A DNA stretch of 64,000 nt from Parcubacteria group bacterium (GTDB taxonomy: Bacteria; Patescibacteriota; Minisyncoccia; Phycocordibacterales; 21-14-all-47-15): the NCBI GenBank assembly GCA_016181845.1, contig JACOYO010000001.1:33133-97132 (forward strand), written 5' to 3'. The notes beneath the pieces were generated by a model. The model was given only the letters and a program-made list of their open reading frames with translations, did not search any database and was not told the DNA's origin. Position 1 is the stretch's first letter; every line of letters starts with the position of its first letter. Below are positions 2,351-49,981 of the stretch, one piece after another. A program made the translations under genes and the position numbers.

Positions 2351-2842
2351 TTAAAGAAGCTTTTTAATTTTTTTGATAATGCCCATAGTGGAAATATTTT
2401 CAAACTCAGTGGGACATTGTCTATCTAAAACAACCATCCTTATTCCGCGCTTGCTTGTTGCTTCTTCCCGCATTTCTTTATACGGGGCATCCTTATTTAT
2501 TATGTAAATATCGGGACGAAGAAGGTCTAATATTTTTTCGTCCAACCAAACATGCTCGGGTGTTAATGTATCCAAAAAACAATAATCAACTGATTTCAAC
2601 GAATCTACACTCTTTAGTCTTATATGTTCATTTAAAATCGGTCGGTTTGCACCTTTATATTTTTTAATTATAGCGTCACTTCCAACCGCGACAACCAATA
2701 TATCTCCGTACTGTTTACAATCTTCAAAAAATAGAGCATGCCCGGCATGTGTCAAATCAAAAGTACCGGTGCATAAAACTATTTTTTTATTTTGTGATTG
2801 TTGCCGTATGATAGGCAAATCATCATAACTAATGTAAGCCAT
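2351..2842 (-). CDS. Cytidylyltransferase-like nucleotidyltransferase (TagD / HldE-domain-II family)
   Basis: CTGTFDLTHAGH (HxGH nucleotidyltransferase signature) near the N-terminus; ~160 aa. Confidence 0.7.
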   Translation of the reverse strand: MAYISYDDLPIIRQQSQNKKIVLCTGTFDLTHAGHALFFEDCKQYGDILVVAVGSDAIIKKYKGANRPILNEHIRLKSVDSLKSVDYCFLDTLTPEHVWLDEKILDLLRPDIYIINKDAPYKEMREEATSKRGIRMVVLDRQCPTEFENISTMGIIKKIKKLL

Positions 2843-2843
2843 A

Positions 2844-4013
2844 TCAAATTACGCCAACAATAACTTTATTTAATTTCCGCCCCAAAACGCGATAATCCAA
2901 ACGCTTCGCACGAGTTAAAATATCTTTGGATAATTTGGTCCTCAAACGCTCATCCTCTCCGAGCCGATGGAGCTTTTCCGACAAATCTTTTGCGTCATCG
3001 GGCTTAAAAGTCAGCGCGGAACCTTCAGTCAACCATTCAAGCGCCCCTCCTCCTGGAATAATGCAGGGCATGCCAAACGCCATCGCTTCGGTCAGAAGCG
3101 CCGAGCCGTATTCAATCCACCATTTGGGGAAAATAAAAATCTGTGACGCGAGGAAAAAGTCAAACATTTTGTCTCTTGCCACCCAACCGGGAAATGAAAA
3201 ATATTTTCCCAAACCTGTCTCGCGCACCATTGCCTCAAGGCGTTCTTTGTCCGGCCCCCCGCCGCTCATGACAACACGATATTTTTCTTTATCCGGCAAA
3301 TCCGCAAAAGCCTTGATAACCAAATCAAATCCTTTTTCTTTAAACATCCTGCCGGTGCAAAATATGTTTACCATATCACTGGAATGCTGACGTTTTTCTA
3401 ATACCGCATCGGTAATATGGTTTCGTTCAATAATTCCCTCCATATCGACAAAATCTTCTATGACCGAGCATTTTTTGCCGTCTATGCCGAAATCTGTATA
3501 CATTTTTTGCACCATCGGCGTATTAAAAATGAACGCATCAAGATAATTGGCTATTGGGATACCAAATAGATGCTCCAAAAAAACTCTCATTTTCTTTTTC
3601 ACCGATTTCAGGAAAGACACCCGCTCCGGATTCCCCGTCATGTCCGCCCAGCAATTAAGCCTGATGTTAAAAAACGCCACTACCGGCTTTTTGCCGCCGA
3701 GCATCCGATACAGCCCGCCTCCGTACAAAAACATGTGCCCGTCTATATAAAAAGCGTCCGCGTCTTTTTCGTATTTTTTAAGCAAGCCATAGATGCCCTT
3801 CTGCATACTGAGTAAATTCCCTTTGGGCGCAATGTTTTCCTTTTTAACCGGATACGGTAAGTCAATCGTAATATTATTGGCACGAGAAAAAGCGGTCACG
3901 ACGGTGACCTCGTGCCCATGGTCAAGCAGACTTTTTGCTTTCCAGTGCAAATCCAGCACCGAGCCGCCCGCGGTTTCAAAATTCAGTTTTGAGGTAATTA
4001 AAATAATTCTCAC
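2844..4013 (-). CDS. Glycosyltransferase family 1 (GT4)
   Basis: GT-B C-terminal domain with an E..PL..EA-type motif region (EYGSALLTEAMAFGMPCI); ~390 aa. Confidence 0.75.
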   Translation of the reverse strand: MRIILITSKLNFETAGGSVLDLHWKAKSLLDHGHEVTVVTAFSRANNITIDLPYPVKKENIAPKGNLLSMQKGIYGLLKKYEKDADAFYIDGHMFLYGGGLYRMLGGKKPVVAFFNIRLNCWADMTGNPERVSFLKSVKKKMRVFLEHLFGIPIANYLDAFIFNTPMVQKMYTDFGIDGKKCSVIEDFVDMEGIIERNHITDAVLEKRQHSSDMVNIFCTGRMFKEKGFDLVIKAFADLPDKEKYRVVMSGGGPDKERLEAMVRETGLGKYFSFPGWVARDKMFDFFLASQIFIFPKWWIEYGSALLTEAMAFGMPCIIPGGGALEWLTEGSALTFKPDDAKDLSEKLHRLGEDERLRTKLSKDILTRAKRLDYRVLGRKLNKVIVGVI

Positions 4014-28511: not shown

Positions 28512-29561
28512 TCATTTTTCTCTATTGAGAAGGTCGGTCATTTTTTTTATGACAGAGACGCCGCTGTGGTTTTGTATCACCAGAGACTGAAGCTCGCGGA
28601 GTTCATATTTTGAGGCCGTCTTGATTTCTAATATTTTTTGGACAATATAATCTGCGTTGGTATTCCGCAAAAGATGTTTTTCTGGCAACATTGCAAAAAA
28701 AGCTTCGTTTGAAGTGAGCACGTTAACCCCTGACGCCATCGCTTCAAGGACCGCCTTATCAAGACTTCCGGTTTCGCTCAAATTGATAAAGAGATCGCTT
28801 TTTTGATAAAAGGAGTGGATATCGGAATACGAAACCGCGCCAACAAAAAACACGCTGTCATCTATCCCCTTCGCTTGTATCTCTTTTTTTAATCGAATGA
28901 AATAGTCATAATCCGCATTTGTAATCGGCGCCCCGACAATTTTCATTTCAAAAGAAACGCCTTCTTTTTTCAAAAGTTCTGCCGCTTCAAGCATCATGTG
29001 AATATTTTTTGCCGGCGTAATTCTACTGACAGAAAGAATATTCAATTTTTCGTGCGGCCACTTGTCCACCGGATGAAAACGCTCCGTATCAATCCCATGT
29101 CCTACTACATGCACCTTGTCGCTTTTCAAACGAAAACTTTCTTTTGAGGCGGTAAAGATAATATCGGATAATTTTTCCGCGACGCGCAATTTCATATCAA
29201 CCTGTTTGTGCGTATACCATAGCGCAATTTTTTTAGACAAAAGTTTCCAAAACACACCTCCGAGCAAAATATATATCGGATTCATGTGCACGAAGACCGT
29301 ATCGTAATTTTTTTTCTCATTCCAGATATATCTATAAAACCTTGCGATATATCGAAAGGTTTTTATTACAGTGGCACCAGCAAATTCTTCTTTGCCGAGC
29401 GATAATACGGAAACATTCTGCGGCAAATGGTATTTGCCTTTTTGCAAACAAATAACCGTAACTTTTTCAGCATGCTTGGCAAATTCTTCAATCCACCGGA
29501 CAAAAAAACCGAGGTTGTCGTCCTGTTCGTCCACTTTTTGAGTTATGATAAGCAGTCGCAT
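28512..29561 (-). CDS. Glycosyltransferase family 1 (GT4); contains the 28-bp palindrome, copy A, in frame
   Basis: C-terminal GT-B domain (GSLDKAVLEAMASGVNVL); ~349 aa. The palindrome encodes KTFRYIARFY. Confidence 0.8.
   Translation of the reverse strand: MRLLIITQKVDEQDDNLGFFVRWIEEFAKHAEKVTVICLQKGKYHLPQNVSVLSLGKEEFAGATVIKTFRYIARFYRYIWNEKKNYDTVFVHMNPIYILLGGVFWKLLSKKIALWYTHKQVDMKLRVAEKLSDIIFTASKESFRLKSDKVHVVGHGIDTERFHPVDKWPHEKLNILSVSRITPAKNIHMMLEAAELLKKEGVSFEMKIVGAPITNADYDYFIRLKKEIQAKGIDDSVFFVGAVSYSDIHSFYQKSDLFINLSETGSLDKAVLEAMASGVNVLTSNEAFFAMLPEKHLLRNTNADYIVQKILEIKTASKYELRELQSLVIQNHSGVSVIKKMTDLLNREK
29334..29366. repeat. 28-bp near-perfect palindrome AAAACCTTGCGATATATCGAAAGGTTTT (copy A), inside the GT4 CDS
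   Basis: Same palindrome at 42936-42966 and 49363-49393. Confidence 0.85.
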
Positions 29562-31869: not shown

Positions 31870-31902
31870 ATATCGTATGTTTTACTTAACCATCTTCAAC
31901 TT

Positions 31903-31937
31903 CCAAACTGTTGGACATCCGATGTCCAACAGTTTGG
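31903..31937. promoter_or_regulatory. 35-bp perfect palindrome CCAAACTGTTGGACATC-C-GATGTCCAACAGTTTGG, second copy of the same dyad core
   Basis: Shares the core TGTTGGACATC N GATGTCCAACA with the site 34 bp downstream. Abuts the E2 repeat. Confidence 0.5.
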
Positions 31938-32168
31938 AAGAAACTCGCTCTCTATCATAGTTTTTGAGAGACATTGCGGAGCCCACAGGCGAGCATAGCA
32001 AATCCTGCTCGCAAGCAGGTTCTGAAGCGAATATTTGAAGCTTCAGAAAACCTTTTGAGAATTTTTGCAAGTTTTGCGAAGTAAAAAATCCAAAAGGTGT
32101 ACTAATCCTGTAAGGATTATGCGCGTCTATCAAAAACTCATGATGAGGAAGAGTTTCGTAATTCATAG
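31938..32168. repeat. MITE-like intergenic repeat element, copy E2 (longest copy, ~230 bp)
   Basis: 5' module CTATCATAGTTTTTGAGAGACATTGCGGAGCCCACAGGCGAGCATAGCA. Hairpin AATCCTGCT-cgca-AGCAGGTT. About 100 bp of extra internal hairpins. 3' module ATGCGCGTCTATCAAAAACTCATGATGAGGAAGAGTTTCGTAATTCATAG. The 94-aa ORF 31882-32166 within it is treated as spurious. Confidence 0.7.
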
Positions 32169-42935: not shown

Positions 42936-42966
42936 TAAAAACCTTTCGATATATCGAAAGGTTTTA
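42936..42966. repeat. 28-bp perfect palindrome AAAACCTTTCGATATATCGAAAGGTTTT (copy B), intergenic
   Basis: Perfect dyad. Copies at 29334-29366 and 49363-49393 differ only by T to G at one position. Confidence 0.85.
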
Positions 42967-43002
42967 TGGGTAAAAAATTTGCTACGCGAAAGCAAAGTGA
43001 CT

Positions 43003-44672
43003 TTATAAAAACAGACGCGCGAGACGTAAATCATCAAATGAGTACTCGCCCTTGAGTTTGCGGTGCGCGGGAGTTAATTTCATGTCTTTTGTCGCGGCAA
43101 ATGCCTCTTTTATTTTTTTGAAATCGCGCGCATCCGGCCTGAATCTGATTAAATCGCAATCTGGAAAAAGTGCTTTTATTTTTTCCAAATGTGAAATAAT
43201 TGTCCCCGGCGTCATGCCGCGCTCCTTCGCGATTGCTTGCAAAGAAAGTCCTCGCGCCACATACTCACGTGTCTTTTCGTAAGTTGAGACGCGCTGTTTC
43301 GGCGATTCTTTTTCTTTTTTGTGTTTCTCTCTGTTTTTCGCGATTTCTTTTTTATTGAGCGTCCCTCCGCAGGCGATAATAAATTTTTCATGCATCGCTT
43401 CAAGCTCTTTTTCTGAAAATTGCCGGAGTGAGCGCTCCCATTTGGAAGAATCAGCGAGCAATCTTTTATCAAGTACCGCGACATCGGGATACACGGCAAG
43501 CGCCATGTCGTTCATGCCGCGAAGAAAAAGCCCCGAAAGCGAGCGGAGCCGCGAGAGCGCCACATATCCCTGCCCTGGCACAAACGCTTGCGAGAGATCA
43601 ATCTCCGCCGCGTCCATGCTCATCCCCTGACTCTTATGAATCGTTATCGCCCATGCGAGCCGAAGCGGTAATTGGCTCACGGACGCGAGCGTTTTTTCGT
43701 CTTCTTTGATTTCCCATTCCGCTGAAGAAACAGCAATGTCCCTCCCGTCAAACGTCCGCACGACTGGCTGCTCGTCGTCAAAATCTGTCACCGTACCAAG
43801 CGTGCCGTTATTGTATCCTCCTTCTATATTATTTTTTACAAACATAACGACCGCGTCTTTTTTTAATTTCAGCGTTTCCGGAGCCAAAATATTTTTTTTC
43901 AATGTTTCTACCAAATGCAGCTTTCCTTTCGAGCGCATCTCGTACGTTTTCTCCTCGCCCGAAAGTTTACCCAATTCAATTTCGTTTTCGGCATCAACAT
44001 CGGCGTTGTGCGTATAAAGCCGCGTCGGAAGCGCACCGCTCTTCCTCTCTTTATATCCTGAAGCCATGAGAATTTTTTTGGTGTGCGAAGACACGGCGCC
44101 ACCACGTATTTCATTCAAAAGATTTTCCAGCACCGCGTCTCCGTGCCGAAATTGTTCATCAAGATAACAGACGCGGATGTCCGACGCTTTCCACGCGTCT
44201 GATACATGAATAAACTCCACCGCCATATTGCCGCGCGTAATTGGCGGCAGCTGAAAAAAATCGCCAGCAAGCACAATCTGCATCCCACCAAATGGTTTGT
44301 CACTTCGCTTCATCTCTCGGCACACGCGCTCCACCGTATCAAACAAGCGCGGAGAAAGCATGGACACTTCATCAATAACCAATATTTTTGTCTTTTCAAA
44401 CCGCTTCCACAAATATTCTTTTTGCGCGAGCGCTTCCAACTCATATTGCGAGAGCGTATCTCGGACGCCAACGCCCGACCACGAATGGAGCGTCACCCCG
44501 CCCAAATGAGTCGCGGCAATGCCGGTGGATGCCGTTACCGCTATCGGTATGCCGCGCTCTTTGATATATGAAATATATTTGTTCAGGACGTGCGTCTTCC
44601 CGCTGCCGGCGGCACCGGTAAGGTAAACATTTTTCCCCGCTTTAAGCACCTCAAGCGCTTGCGTCTGTTTCA
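43003..44672 (-). CDS. PIF1/RecD-like superfamily-1 DNA helicase with a C-terminal helix-turn-helix domain
   Basis: Start taken at MKQTQALEVLKAGKNVYLTGAAGSGKTH (Walker A). The ORF track extends further upstream. C-terminal ~100 aa has an HTH-like segment LSLQAIAKERGMTPGTIISHLEK. Confidence 0.7.
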
Positions 44673-44768
44673 TAAAAAATATTGTAGCACAACATGGTTG
44701 CTTTAATCTCCAAAAAGACTTTCGGTTTATCACCTTGACATGGCAAGTGATTAGTATACACTTGTAAA

Positions 44769-44858
44769 TACAAATGGCCTTCGGGCTCGGTTCATCGCAA
44801 GATGAACCAGACAAGTTCAAAAACGCGATTATAGCATAGCTTTAATCGCGTTTTTGAT
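44769..44858 (+). ncRNA. Candidate small RNA (~90 nt) with UUCG- and GCAA-capped hairpins and an intrinsic terminator
   Basis: Putative promoter TTGACA (44735-40), N16, TACACT (44757-62). Hairpins GGCC-UUCG-GGCU (44776-87), GGUUCAUC-GCAA-GAUGAACC (44789-808) and AAAAACGCGAUUA ... UAAUCGCGUUUUU (44819-55), followed by a U-run. No ORF. Confidence 0.35.
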
Positions 44859-44892
44859 TTTTATGATAAATACAACCGAAAATCTATTTTTA

Positions 44893-45255
44893 CTATAGTA
44901 AACCAATAATAATTTGAACGACGCCAACAGCAACTCCAATAACAATAGCAGAGATTGCAATGCGCGTTGCTCTTGTACCACTTCTCTCTGCTTCTTTTAA
45001 CATGCGATATTCAATAATAGTGGATACACCCTTGGCTGTTATCGCATAACGATGTTTATCTTGCGCATCTAAATATTCAACATGTTCAATCACTCTGTCA
45101 CTAGATTGATCAGGTTTAAGTATCCTTATGTACCAATTCTTTTCTTTTGGTGTTAAAATAAATTTTTTTATCAAATCTTCTTCGAGAAACCCGCCCTCTT
45201 GTTTTTCATAAGCCCATTCTAGTATTTCCATAAAGATGCCATCTTTAGTTTTCAT
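44893..45255 (-). CDS. Hypothetical small protein with a C-terminal transmembrane anchor
   Basis: 120 aa; C-terminal hydrophobic segment RIAISAIVIGVAVGVVQIIIGLL. No recognisable domain. Confidence 0.3.
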   Translation of the reverse strand: MKTKDGIFMEILEWAYEKQEGGFLEEDLIKKFILTPKEKNWYIRILKPDQSSDRVIEHVEYLDAQDKHRYAITAKGVSTIIEYRMLKEAERSGTRATRIAISAIVIGVAVGVVQIIIGLL

Positions 45256-45266
45256 TGGATTTCAGT

Positions 45267-47075
45267 TTATTTAATCTTAAAAGTAAACGTGATTGGAAGA
45301 CTGGAGACAGCGCGATAGAGACCAGAAGTCTGACCGATCGCTCTCATTTCTTTTATAGTGAAAGTATGAGTGCCAGTTGGCATGCCAGTTGTGTCATATA
45401 TTTTGATTTGATATAGAGTGGTATTCTGATTTAGAGGCGCTCCAGATCCAAAAATATTAAAGTCTAAACTGCCAGCCCAAATGCGTAATTTATTAACATC
45501 AATATCAGATTCAAATTTTATCTCGCCAATTCTAAAAGGCTCATCTGCATTTGAAAGACCAAAGGCGGCAATAGTAGCTCCTTGATAGCCAATTGGATAT
45601 TCTGGTATTTCTATAGTGTAATCAATATTATTTGAATCTTGTTGATAAATAGTTCTTCTCTCAATTTTTGGATCAATCTTTATATATTCCACTGCTTTTA
45701 TATCAACGCTTTTACTTATGCCATTCCAAGAAAAAACTATGTTGTGTGTGCCAACCGTTTTTGGATAATAAGTAAAAGAGCCTCCATCAGAACGAGTCTG
45801 GTTTTGAGTAGAATCAGGAGTAAACATTGAAATATTCTTATTTGTTTGTAGCTGCCCATTTTTAAGAATACTTACTTTCAAAGAAGCGCTATTCCACTCA
45901 TTTGCTTGTACTGATGTTTTATCTGGTTGTATTAAAATATCATATTCATCTGGTTTAGTTAAAAAAGAACCTTCCTTTTTTACAACTTGGACACCTGCAA
46001 TAGATTCAATTTCATATGAATAGGTAGTTCCGCTAACTAAATTCGTGAGATTAACTATGTGGCGAGTAGACAGGCCAGATTCAGAATTGTAAACTTTCGA
46101 AGATAAACTTCCACCGGAAATAAATATTTTTGAGTCAGTTGGAATGTTTGTTTGCCATTCGATTCTTGCCGAGGACAGAGATACTTCCACATTAACTGCT
46201 GATATTTGAATATGAATAACAGTTGTGGGGACTTGAGATTGTGCCGATAATGGTAAAATATGGGTTTGTTCCAATGCTTCCTTGATCGTACGAACAATAT
46301 TCCCATTTGAATCCATTTCCACAACAGCACCGTTGGGCAAATTTACGGTGCTGTTTTTTGGCTCTTCTGTTTTGTCTTTTTTATCATCAATTTTCGCTTC
46401 TTTTTCTTTCGGCTCGCTTACTTTTTGTTTAAGATTTTCTATTTCATCTTTGAGTTTATTGATGGTTTTTATTTGTTCATCTTTTTTATCCTCGCCCACT
46501 TGCGGAGTTGCTTCTTTGTCTTTCAATTCCGCTTTCAAATCTTCAAGTTGTTGTTTGAGTCCCAACACTTCTTTTTTAAGTTCGGTCATTTGTTTCGCCG
46601 CTTCTTCCTGCCCTTTTTTGCTTGCTTCAATGGCTTTTTCAATCGCCGCTTTGGCTTCTTCGGGTACTTTAATCAGGACGGCAGACAATGCTTCATGATT
46701 TTTTGCAGTGGTGTCTTCAATGGAAGTGAACAGGTTTTCCGCTTGTATTTTGTCTTTGACATCTTTTGATTTTTCAATTGCTAGAGCGACATTTTCTTCA
46801 TAACTAGCGAGAGCTATTTTTACTGCGTCTGGGTTTTTGTCTTCCGCGACAGATTCTATTTCCGCCAATCGTTCATTCGCATATTCCAACGCTTTTTTCG
46901 CTTTCTGTTCGGGATTGAATGTGAAGAAAAGCCCGATTTTTTCGAAAGTGGTATCAAAGAGATAAAAGAAGCTCCCTGGTTTTACGCCTGCGCTTGTGGC
47001 AGCAGATACTGGGGCAGGCACTATAAAAGCAATTGAAATAAATAGTATTGATAATATTGTGAGTGATTTTTTCAT
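45267..47075 (-). CDS. Secreted surface protein: signal peptide, N-terminal helical domain, Lys/Glu-rich coiled coil, beta-rich (Ig/FN3-like) C-terminal region
   Basis: Start taken at MKKSLTILSILFISIAFIVPAPVSA. Coiled-coil heptads ELKKEVLGLKQQLEDLKAELKDKE. The ORF track begins 16 codons upstream. Confidence 0.45.
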   Translation of the reverse strand: MKKSLTILSILFISIAFIVPAPVSAATSAGVKPGSFFYLFDTTFEKIGLFFTFNPEQKAKKALEYANERLAEIESVAEDKNPDAVKIALASYEENVALAIEKSKDVKDKIQAENLFTSIEDTTAKNHEALSAVLIKVPEEAKAAIEKAIEASKKGQEEAAKQMTELKKEVLGLKQQLEDLKAELKDKEATPQVGEDKKDEQIKTINKLKDEIENLKQKVSEPKEKEAKIDDKKDKTEEPKNSTVNLPNGAVVEMDSNGNIVRTIKEALEQTHILPLSAQSQVPTTVIHIQISAVNVEVSLSSARIEWQTNIPTDSKIFISGGSLSSKVYNSESGLSTRHIVNLTNLVSGTTYSYEIESIAGVQVVKKEGSFLTKPDEYDILIQPDKTSVQANEWNSASLKVSILKNGQLQTNKNISMFTPDSTQNQTRSDGGSFTYYPKTVGTHNIVFSWNGISKSVDIKAVEYIKIDPKIERRTIYQQDSNNIDYTIEIPEYPIGYQGATIAAFGLSNADEPFRIGEIKFESDIDVNKLRIWAGSLDFNIFGSGAPLNQNTTLYQIKIYDTTGMPTGTHTFTIKEMRAIGQTSGLYRAVSSLPITFTFKIK

Positions 47076-49192: not shown

Positions 49193-49981
49193 ATGCAAGA
49201 AAAGAGAAGGGAAAAGAAAAAAATGCGGTGGAGAAAACAAAAACGCCAAGCCAGCTCTTTTTGGGAAAAAGAATATAAGAGCGGCGAGCATTTGGCTCTC
49301 TCGACAAGCGCGAGCGAAGACCTGCAAAAATTCACGCGGTGGCTTTCGCGCGAAAATGATAATAAAACCTTGCGATATATCGAAAGGTTTTTACCAGTAA
49401 ATAAATACTCGACGACAAAAGCATCCGTTGCTGATTTAGGCACCGGCAATGGGAGAAATCTTATATACCTTGCAGAAACGTTCGGCATGAAAGGCACTGG
49501 ATTTGATATTTCCCGCGAGGCGATTGAACAGGCAAAAATCGCGAGCAAAAACAAAAATTTGCCGCTTGAATTTTTCGTGCGCTCAATCGCGGAGCCAATT
49601 CCACTGCCCGATAATTCACAAGACATCGTCCTTGATATGATGACCTCGCATTTTTTAAACAACTCCGAGCGAGCGATCCTCCTTTCCGAAATCGCGCGCA
49701 TTTTGAAACCGGGCGGCTTTCTTTTTTTCAAAACATTTCTTCTTGATGAGGATATTCACGCGGCGCGTCTTTTGCGCGAGCACCCAGCGGGAGAACCGGG
49801 CTCATACATTCACCCTGAAATCGGCAAAGCCGAGCATGTATTCACCGAAAATGAAATCGTTGCTCTCTTTTCTCACTATTTCACGATACGAAAAATTACC
49901 AAATCGCACCGCCACAAAATCAAAGGACATGCCGCCAAACGCAGAAGCATTTCCGTATACGCAGAAAAAGAAATCCGTTAA
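49193..49981 (+). CDS. Class I SAM-dependent methyltransferase; contains the 28-bp palindrome, copy C, in frame
   Basis: ADLGTGNGRNLIYLAE motif I, ILKPGGFLFFKTF. Start uncertain (Lys/Arg-rich N-terminus). The palindrome encodes KTLRYIERFL. Confidence 0.65.
   Translation: MQEKRREKKKMRWRKQKRQASSFWEKEYKSGEHLALSTSASEDLQKFTRWLSRENDNKTLRYIERFLPVNKYSTTKASVADLGTGNGRNLIYLAETFGMKGTGFDISREAIEQAKIASKNKNLPLEFFVRSIAEPIPLPDNSQDIVLDMMTSHFLNNSERAILLSEIARILKPGGFLFFKTFLLDEDIHAARLLREHPAGEPGSYIHPEIGKAEHVFTENEIVALFSHYFTIRKITKSHRHKIKGHAAKRRSISVYAEKEIR
49363..49393. repeat. 28-bp near-perfect palindrome AAAACCTTGCGATATATCGAAAGGTTTT (copy C), inside the methyltransferase CDS
   Basis: Identical to copy A. Flanking sequence is unrelated. 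Confidence 0.85.

Follow-up and report, generated by a model that had tools for sequence, protein, structure and literature searches.

This study concerns a window of 64,000 nucleotides (nt), a chromosomal fragment from the metagenome-assembled genome of a Parcubacteria group bacterium (contig JACOYO010000001.1). Within it, a structured element is located between a PIF1/HTH_40 helicase gene (43003–44673) and a gene for a tail-anchored protein of 120 amino acids (44893–45255). Both flanking genes are on the minus strand, as the initial annotation of this DNA had noted, and the element reads on the plus strand. It comprises a promoter-like sequence, two small hairpins and an intrinsic terminator. 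The annotation had proposed an independent plus-strand small RNA (sRNA) of about 90 nt, and this proposal is now supported by 17 other distinct loci, with their conserved promoters, compensatory changes and G.U pairs that form on the plus strand only. The comparison also links the RNA to a PemK/MazF-family toxin gene, of which the window retains only a remnant, and the RNA probably acts as the antitoxin of that toxin. The module and the orphan status of the window copy were beyond the reach of the earlier reading of a single sequence.

The −35 box TTGACA (44735–44740) and the −10 box TACACT (44757–44762) are separated by a spacer of 16 nt. With 10 of 12 matches, they form the top-scoring promoter-like site within 43000–47000. 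Ten such sites were found in this interval against 7.8 expected, which is no excess over chance; therefore, the promoter cannot be judged from the window sequence alone. An imperfect palindrome, ATCACCTTGACATGGCAAGTGAT, at 44729–44751 overlaps the −35 box and lies between the divergent promoters of the sRNA and the helicase gene. It may be a candidate binding site for a regulator and is not conserved in the other family members.

The predicted transcript extends from 44770 to 44862 (about 91–93 nt), with its 5′ end placed by the promoter geometry and its 3′ end by the U-rich sequence after the terminator. It begins with a single-stranded leader, ACAAAU (44770–44775), which together with the next G forms the nearly invariant ACAAAUG of the family. 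Hairpin 1 (GGCC-UUCG-GGCU, 44776–44787) is closed by an outer G.U pair when read on the plus strand; the minus strand would have A.C there. Hairpin 2 (GGUUCAUC-GCAA-GAUGAACC, 44789–44808) consists of 8 base pairs capped by a GCAA loop. In the window it is a perfect 8+8 DNA palindrome, and across the family only its structure is conserved. A purine-rich, single-stranded spacer (AGACAAGUUC, 44809–44818) connects it to the terminator, whose stem (44819–44855) is followed by the U-rich UUUUUGAUUUUU up to 44862. This terminator is bidirectional, with an A-run on its 5′ side and a T-run on its 3′ side, and it sits 31 nt beyond the stop codon of the membrane-protein gene. The two-hairpin core of 33 nt occurs once in the window. 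The plus strand (99 nt) folds with −40.9 kcal/mol, compared with −17.1 ± 3.0 for 200 dinucleotide shuffles (z = −8.0, none of the 200 as good). The promoter, the hairpins with UUCG and GCAA loops and the terminator described in the initial annotation are thus all in place; the 13-bp terminator stem has 13 outer pairs plus an inner helix of 3 bp. Its statement that the region has no coding potential is literally incorrect, because an open reading frame (ORF) of 21 codons (MAFGLGSSQDEPDKFKNAIIA) opens at the AUG at 44774, 4 nt from the predicted transcript start. The statement holds in so far as neither the frame nor the peptide is conserved among the homologues.

A metagenome collection was scanned with the pattern GCCTTCGGGCN{2,5}YYYRYCGCAAGRYRRR, which returned 13 loci. 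The whole architecture is common to 11 of them. The remaining two, L016 and L026, were rejected as matching by chance: promoter, terminator and toxin are absent from both, and a covariance model of the 5′ domain (model R1) misses them. The match in L016 (587–616) lies in a GC-rich, apparently highly structured region of an unrelated organism. A further seven sequences were collected through the toxin protein, giving 18 distinct family sequences from groundwater Parcubacteria contigs. The pattern fixes 16 bases, including GCCTTCGGGC and CGCAAG, and this is an ascertainment bias in 11 of the 18 sequences.

The promoter is retained in 17 of the 18 sequences as TTGAC(A/T/G), a spacer of 16–18 nt and TAnnnT, 6–7 nt ahead of ACAAAUG, while the spacer sequences are unrelated; TTGAC stands at an equal distance in each. 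The hexamers identified in the window and their spacing to the 5′ end are therefore kept in the homologues. The 5′ domain, ACAAAUG(G)CC-UUCG-GGCU(C/U)G, is almost invariant. Its leader varies only by C2→U in one sequence and A5→G in two, and the UUCG loop of hairpin 1 is invariant. In L032 and L045, the stem of hairpin 1 shows a compensatory flip of the middle pair from C-G to G-C (GGC-UUCG-GCC replacing GCC-UUCG-GGC). All seven protein-picked copies keep ACAA(A/G)UG, the UUCG loop and CU(C/U)G. Hairpin 2 behaves differently: its stem (5–9 bp) has a wholly different sequence from locus to locus with the pairing always kept, and its loop is GCAA, UUCG, UUUAUU or an insert of 14 nt. It is followed by AGA in 15 of the 18 sequences, and an AGA-rich spacer and then a terminator with a U-run complete the layout in most loci (15/18). 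A subgroup of three (L015, L018 and L023) has no separate terminator hairpin; a GC-rich hairpin 2 of 9 bp is followed by GGCAAAC and leads straight into the toxin stop codon. In these loci, either hairpin 2 terminates transcription or the RNA reads on antisense into the toxin gene.

In the window, model R1 matched only 44770–44811 (47.7 bits, E = 1.8e-08). The Rfam/Infernal scan suggested in the initial annotation was run on the whole window and the family loci. At the gathering thresholds, Rfam 15 gave no family match to the element, including the pemK motif RF02913, and returned only a tRNA in L027. Permissive searches (E ≤ 10 around the element; E ≤ 1) gave matches well short of the gathering scores, most of them to precursors of microRNAs or to unrelated sRNAs.

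To examine the secondary structure, 15 distinct 5′ domains were brought into a structural alignment. It was N-padded, and because it was adjusted by hand to the structure, it is biased in favor of that structure. It replaced a MAFFT alignment of the whole RNA, which misaligns hairpin 2, and an Infernal alignment served as a cross-check. All of the 157 cells in paired columns (100%) pair in the structural alignment, and 8 of 13 pairs show double-sided changes. The covariation score is 0.527, compared with 0.156 in shuffles (0 of 500 as high), and only 29–59% of cells pair in a control in which the partners were slid. In the Infernal alignment, 91% of the cells are paired and the same 7 of 9 hairpin-2 pairs covary. 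Compensatory changes were also found in 7 of the 15 consensus pairs of the terminator. The comparative test that had been recommended for the orthologous intergenic region was uninformative there, since those spacers are identical or lack the hairpins; the covariation in hairpin 2 and the terminator came from the family loci.

Hairpins 1 and 2 contain 12 G.U cells and no A.C cells, a ratio that fixes the plus strand, and the terminator contains 22 and 4, respectively. In 16 of the 18 sequences, folding is more stable for the plus strand than for the minus strand. Together with the promoter in 17 of the 18, these results establish, as far as sequence can, that the element is a plus-strand sRNA gene with its own promoter and terminator.

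An ORF of about 128 codons is convergent to the RNA in all family loci, and its last codons (about 10) form one arm (5′) of the RNA terminator. This ORF or its end is present in 11 of the 11 family loci that were found with the DNA pattern. In the reverse direction, seven toxin clusters were picked by protein alone (P0037, P0072, P0088, P0126, P0041, P0115 and P0127), and the RNA is located directly past the stop codon on the opposite strand in 7/7 of their loci. Model R1 gives a single hit in each toxin locus and no hit in the non-toxin loci that were scanned (L001–L003, L006, L008–L010, L016 and L026).

The product of the ORF belongs to the Pfam family PemK_toxin (PF02452), with E-values of 1e-11 to 1e-13 and 45–49 bits against a gathering cut-off of 23.1. 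Its predicted structure has a predicted local distance difference test score (pLDDT) of 72.7, with values >80 in the core. The predicted fold resembles solved MazF structures with a probability of 1.00 and a template modeling (TM) score of 0.6–0.7. At the positions of the catalytic Arg and Thr of MazF, the family has R53, which is nearly invariant, and T72, which is invariant; we take their catalytic role to be that of the corresponding residues in B. subtilis MazF. The partner looks catalytically competent. It differs by an N-terminal extension of about 28 residues. The toxins of the family are 39–78% identical, and they represent a large subfamily: of the 8000 candidates scored, 5377 clusters pass E ≤ 1e-10, and each of the top 120 has an E-value under 1e-53. 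Where a source is named for a cluster, it is Parcubacteria, Paceibacterota or Patescibacteria. No defense-system model of PADLOC recognized the toxin. In L015, L021, L036 and L039, a −10 box is located 6–8 nt ahead of the toxin ATG, as in the helicase gene of the window; toxin genes that have a promoter of their own are thus expected to give leaderless mRNAs.

The genes beside the toxin vary by locus. They include lemA with a TPM-domain gene, rpsI, lepA, an L27 gene, an NYN-domain gene, glycosyltransferase genes and, in the window, the helicase gene. Across 11 loci, the neighbors are mutually non-homologous, and none of them has a MazE, AbrB or RHH domain. In L027, the toxin ORF starts 3 nt past lemA, and the 95 nt from the toxin stop codon to the next gene are filled by the RNA and its promoter. 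The toxin ORF abuts rpsI in L024, and the downstream spacer is only 90–95 nt in L027 and L036. The spacing in these three loci leaves no room for an antitoxin gene. Because the neighbors vary and the L027 spacer is fully occupied, the toxin ORF and the RNA gene appear to move together, and the mobile unit is, on this evidence, these two genes of about 0.5 kb. One assembly, GCA_001004005.1 (Parcubacteria GW2011_GWA2_49_9), contains two modules on different contigs (L036 and L040), with toxins P0126 and P0041 and different hairpin-2 sequences. In L032, the module adjoins two nucleotidyltransferase (Polbeta/NTP_transf_2) genes and a HepT-like gene (2623–3905), which are toxin-antitoxin (TA) genes of the MNT/HEPN type; this neighborhood suggests a small TA or defense cluster.

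The window copy has a different history. Homologous loci carry an intact toxin gene at the position where the window has, on the minus strand, only the last 11 codons (IKIKNAIKAML) and the stop codon of a PemK/MazF-family toxin (44829–44864), which overlap the terminator. In a tblastn search, this remnant (44864–44832) matched the C-terminus of the L020 toxin with 9 of 11 residues identical, and no other toxin copy was detected in the 64-kb window. By inspection, the homology to intact modules stops near 44866. The toxin gene of the window is deleted, and the RNA gene is an orphan, which is kept intact here and in two further assemblies (L004 and L005). Two other loci have a damaged toxin with an intact sRNA alongside: a pseudogene with TAA at the invariant Q44 in L014 (2773–3171) and a frameshift after residue ~83 in L018 (3772–4151). 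Assembly errors may account for these two lesions. An intact toxin without the RNA was not seen among the loci examined. If the RNA is the antidote, such one-sided decay, in which the toxin is lost and the partner kept, is what one would expect.

Since no protein antitoxin accompanies the toxin, we infer that the RNA is probably its antitoxin. A strong sigma70-type promoter of its own would drive plus-strand transcription of the sRNA, a molecule of ~90 nt from 5′-ACAAAUG to the intrinsic terminator. The most likely mode of action would be direct, type III-like neutralization of the toxin by the RNA. The 20 nt at the 5′ end are nearly invariant across toxins that have diverged widely, while the adjacent hairpin 2 drifts freely, and this conserved domain lies outside the antisense overlap. 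Sequence-specific recognition of the 5′ domain by the toxin, the one constant partner, is the simplest account of this pattern. Many MazF enzymes recognize ACA-containing motifs and cut 5′ of the A. The single-stranded ACAAAU and the UUCG hairpin may therefore occupy the RNA-binding groove of the toxin, and the RNA would be an uncleavable, product-like pseudo-substrate. It may resist cleavage because the transcript starts with ACA and so offers no bond to cut on the 5′ side of that motif, which is speculation. Hairpin 2 and the terminator would serve as scaffold and stabilizers. The 3′ end of the RNA necessarily overlaps the toxin mRNA in antisense and may thereby contribute type I-like control as well; we place the direct-binding mode slightly above the antisense mode, and both may operate. 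In the window, the terminator would now also end the neighboring membrane-protein gene. A more far-reaching reading, which we hold to be less likely than not, is a new TA class, in which a MazF-family endoribonuclease would be neutralized by a single-copy, non-repetitive structured sRNA that binds the toxin directly as a pseudo-substrate via its 5′ ACAAAU-UUCG-hairpin domain. The module is abundant and mobile in Parcubacteria and could serve as an abortive-infection defense.

An antitoxin of the type I-like antisense kind is possible and is the best of the other explanations. Only the 3′ segment of the RNA would act; it is the shared terminator, matches the toxin mRNA by perfect complementarity and spans the toxin stop codon and the last ~10 codons. 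The duplex or the convergent transcription would lead to decay of the toxin mRNA by RNase III or a 3′-exonuclease, or to non-stop messages, and the conserved 5′ domain would serve only for stability or for binding of a host factor. The convergent layout with ~30–40 nt of 3′ overlap in the 15 terminator-bearing sequences fits this model. In L015, L018 and L023, the overlap is uncertain, and transcription that meets no separate terminator may continue into the toxin gene. The RNA promoter is strong and the toxin genes are leaderless or merely coupled to the upstream gene, and there are precedents in par/Fst RNA I-RNA II of pAD1 and in bsrG/SR4 and txpA/RatA of B. subtilis. However, the model leaves unexplained why 20 nt outside the overlap are nearly invariant beside a freely drifting hairpin. 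A par-like pairing of the 5′ domain with the toxin translation start was considered and rejected, because the predicted interaction sites disagree between loci and the RNAduplex z-scores of 10 of the 11 loci lie between −0.4 and +1.0. The overlap is also locked in a stable hairpin in both partners, and MazF is a stable enzyme that is normally controlled at the protein level.

It is unlikely that the RNA is linked to the MazF-family gene without being an antitoxin, for example as a dedicated substrate, as a cofactor or specificity factor of the nuclease, or as a trans-acting regulator that travels with it. Linkage and invariance indicate a partnership, not its sign, and the intact orphans in the window and the two further assemblies would suit a function independent of a local toxin. 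However, an active-looking MazF without any other conserved partner needs an inhibitor, and the one-sided decay described above is as expected of an antitoxin.

An explanation that dispenses with an independent RNA is highly improbable. The element would then be a compound bidirectional terminator or a structure in the 3′ untranslated region of the minus-strand genes, or a site acting as DNA, for example in recombination at the module end or as an operator. The two-way terminator close behind the membrane-protein gene, the palindromic hairpin 2 and the imperfect palindrome over the −35 box are compatible with it. The initial annotation had itself named a complex bidirectional terminator as the finding that would overturn its proposal, and this is partly borne out: the terminator does work in two directions by its sequence and originally belonged to the now-deleted minus-strand gene. 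However, that scenario does not explain the invariant 5′ domain or the conserved promoter, whose hexamers keep their distance although the spacers between them are unrelated. Read on the minus strand, or as a DNA cruciform, the 12 G.U cells of hairpins 1 and 2 would be mismatched as A.C, and the stem sequences change wholly with the pairing kept, unlike a protein-binding DNA site. Moreover, a minus-strand reading puts hairpins 1 and 2 beyond the terminator. Finally, a near-leaderless micro-ORF from the AUG at 44774 that encodes a small protein antitoxin has a negligible chance and was rejected: although an AUG (GUG in L024 and L036) occurs at the equivalent position in 18/18 sequences, the frame is not conserved, as one G fewer (AAAUGCC versus AAAUGGCC) shifts it from MAFG... 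to MPSG..., the peptide lengths and sequences are unrelated, and the hairpin-2 substitutions preserve pairing and not amino acids.

Several points weigh against the RNA as a directly binding antitoxin, the reading that we prefer. The pseudo-substrate idea is speculative, since it takes its ACA-type specificity from other MazF enzymes and not from the present toxin. The ends of the RNA, its transcription, its antitoxin role and its mode of binding are all inferred from sequence. The partner is likewise only a putative toxin. The convergent 3′ overlap is just what a type I antisense antitoxin is expected to look like. Part of the apparent invariance of the 5′ domain is ascertainment, as 11 of the 18 sequences were found by the pattern and only seven are free of this bias. 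Toxin loci were sampled sparsely, as seven clusters picked by protein from the best 120 hits, and these lie near the query profile. The strict linkage could reflect co-inheritance of an interlocked unit and not a functional partnership. The N-terminal extension of the toxin, which is predicted at low confidence (pLDDT about 50–55), could itself be inhibitory. In L017, the toxin P0014 has Trp at the position of the catalytic Arg (GEWP versus RRP or DRP); this may be an inactive variant whose sRNA is still kept.

Other genes near the element in the window encode Obg, a SpoU methylase and a DUF5667 protein. The tail-anchored protein is identical to the NCBI entry HYT28_00345 of a Parcubacteria group bacterium. 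L004 and L005, the contigs with the identical small protein, are 100% identical to the window across the region, so they are uninformative for comparison. At the loci of small-protein homologues with 46–76% identity (L006–L013), the spacers differ and contain no equivalent hairpins, and the same is true of the spacers beside the helicase homologues L001 (67%) and L002 (47%), which lack equivalent hairpins. The element is therefore independent of both flanking genes. We also considered that the window region might derive from a phage or plasmid and rejected this, as no phage match was found for it; both the toxin and the RNA core are absent from the IMG/VR viral contigs.

The helicase gene on the minus strand has an extended −10 sequence, TGcTACAAT (44689–44681), which ends 7 nt ahead of its ATG at 44673. 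A Shine-Dalgarno sequence is not present (44671–44689, minus strand). Its mRNA is probably leaderless, given the short distance between the −10 box and the ATG and the missing Shine-Dalgarno sequence. Elsewhere in the window, a 28-bp palindrome, AAAACCTT(T/G)CGATATATCGAAAGGTTTT, occurs three times (29336–29363, 42938–42965 and 49364–49391) with 0–1 mismatch. Zero copies are expected by chance, the flanks are unrelated, and the copy at 42938 directly follows the helicase stop codon. A low-GC terminator acting in both directions is one possible role of the palindrome, an operator another. A perfect inverted repeat of 20+20 nt, CTTCCAAACTGTTGGACATC / GATGTCCAACAGTTTGGAAG, with its arms 1 nt apart, is found at 31900–31940.

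MazF/PemK proteins are the textbook toxins of type II, which is defined by a protein antitoxin, and a large Parcubacterial subfamily appears to lack MazE. Should this subfamily have a conserved structured sRNA as its partner, TA types I, II and III would no longer be sharply separated. The RNA would also be a new family, absent from Rfam, and the element is a concrete, testable candidate for a regulatory RNA in bacteria of the candidate phyla radiation, a group in which hardly any RNA biology has been described. These bacteria reportedly lack CRISPR-Cas for the most part (PMC4742961), so small TA or abortive-infection modules may matter for their defense against phages. Annotators of these genomes should not take an 'orphan' MazF gene to lack an antitoxin, and orphan RNA copies, as in the window, mark decayed modules.

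The module can be compared with the known TA types. Like the type III systems ToxIN, CptIN and TenpIN, it combines an endoribonuclease toxin with a structured non-coding RNA and has no protein antitoxin; the fold of ToxN, moreover, resembles that of Kid/MazF. In both cases, the RNA gene is preceded by a strong promoter and followed by a terminator; in type III, the terminator sets the stoichiometry. However, the present toxin belongs to Pfam PemK/MazF and not to ToxN, CptN or TenpN, and the RNA is a single unit in which no tandem repeats were found. In all loci, it is convergent and not upstream on the toxin strand, and its binding to the toxin is only putative, as suggested by the invariant 5′ domain outside the overlap.

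Convergent type I geometry is known from par/Fst RNA I-RNA II of pAD1, bsrG/SR4 and txpA/RatA. These systems resemble the present module in that an sRNA with its own promoter is directed towards the toxin and the 3′ ends overlap at a bidirectional terminator. Complementarity of the RNA to the toxin mRNA, which characterizes type I, is provided here by the cis-encoded 3′ overlap in the 15 terminator-bearing sequences. However, the toxins of those systems are small hydrophobic peptides, and the present one is a soluble RNase-family protein of 128 amino acids. The present RNA also lacks par-like 5′ complementarity to the translation start, and its most conserved part is outside the overlap.

With type II mazEF and pemIK, the module shares the toxin family, the fold and the positions of the catalytic Arg and Thr. 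An adjacent, co-transcribed MazE or PemI gene of the AbrB or RHH type, which defines type II, is not found; the loci have unrelated neighbors in place of mazE or pemI, the toxin carries the N-terminal extension, and the conserved partner is an RNA. Two RNAs have been associated with such toxins before. As its Rfam entry gives it, RF02913 is the pemK RNA motif, a conserved structure of the type Cis-reg that is named for its association with pemK. The present RNA is a separate convergent gene downstream of the toxin and not a 5′ leader, and it does not match RF02913. The other is aMEF, an antisense RNA of E. coli mazEF which reportedly stimulates expression of the canonical type II operon with MazE and has a poorly conserved promoter (PMC8749433). 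Both aMEF and the present RNA are antisense transcripts at a mazF locus. In contrast to aMEF as described there, the present loci lack MazE, and their promoter and RNA are strongly conserved. We found no description of a MazF/PemK and sRNA module in bacteria of the candidate phyla radiation in open-access papers and preprints. The module fails the defining features of type II, type III and typical type I systems, and it is therefore classed as a putative TA module that pairs a type II toxin family with an RNA partner.

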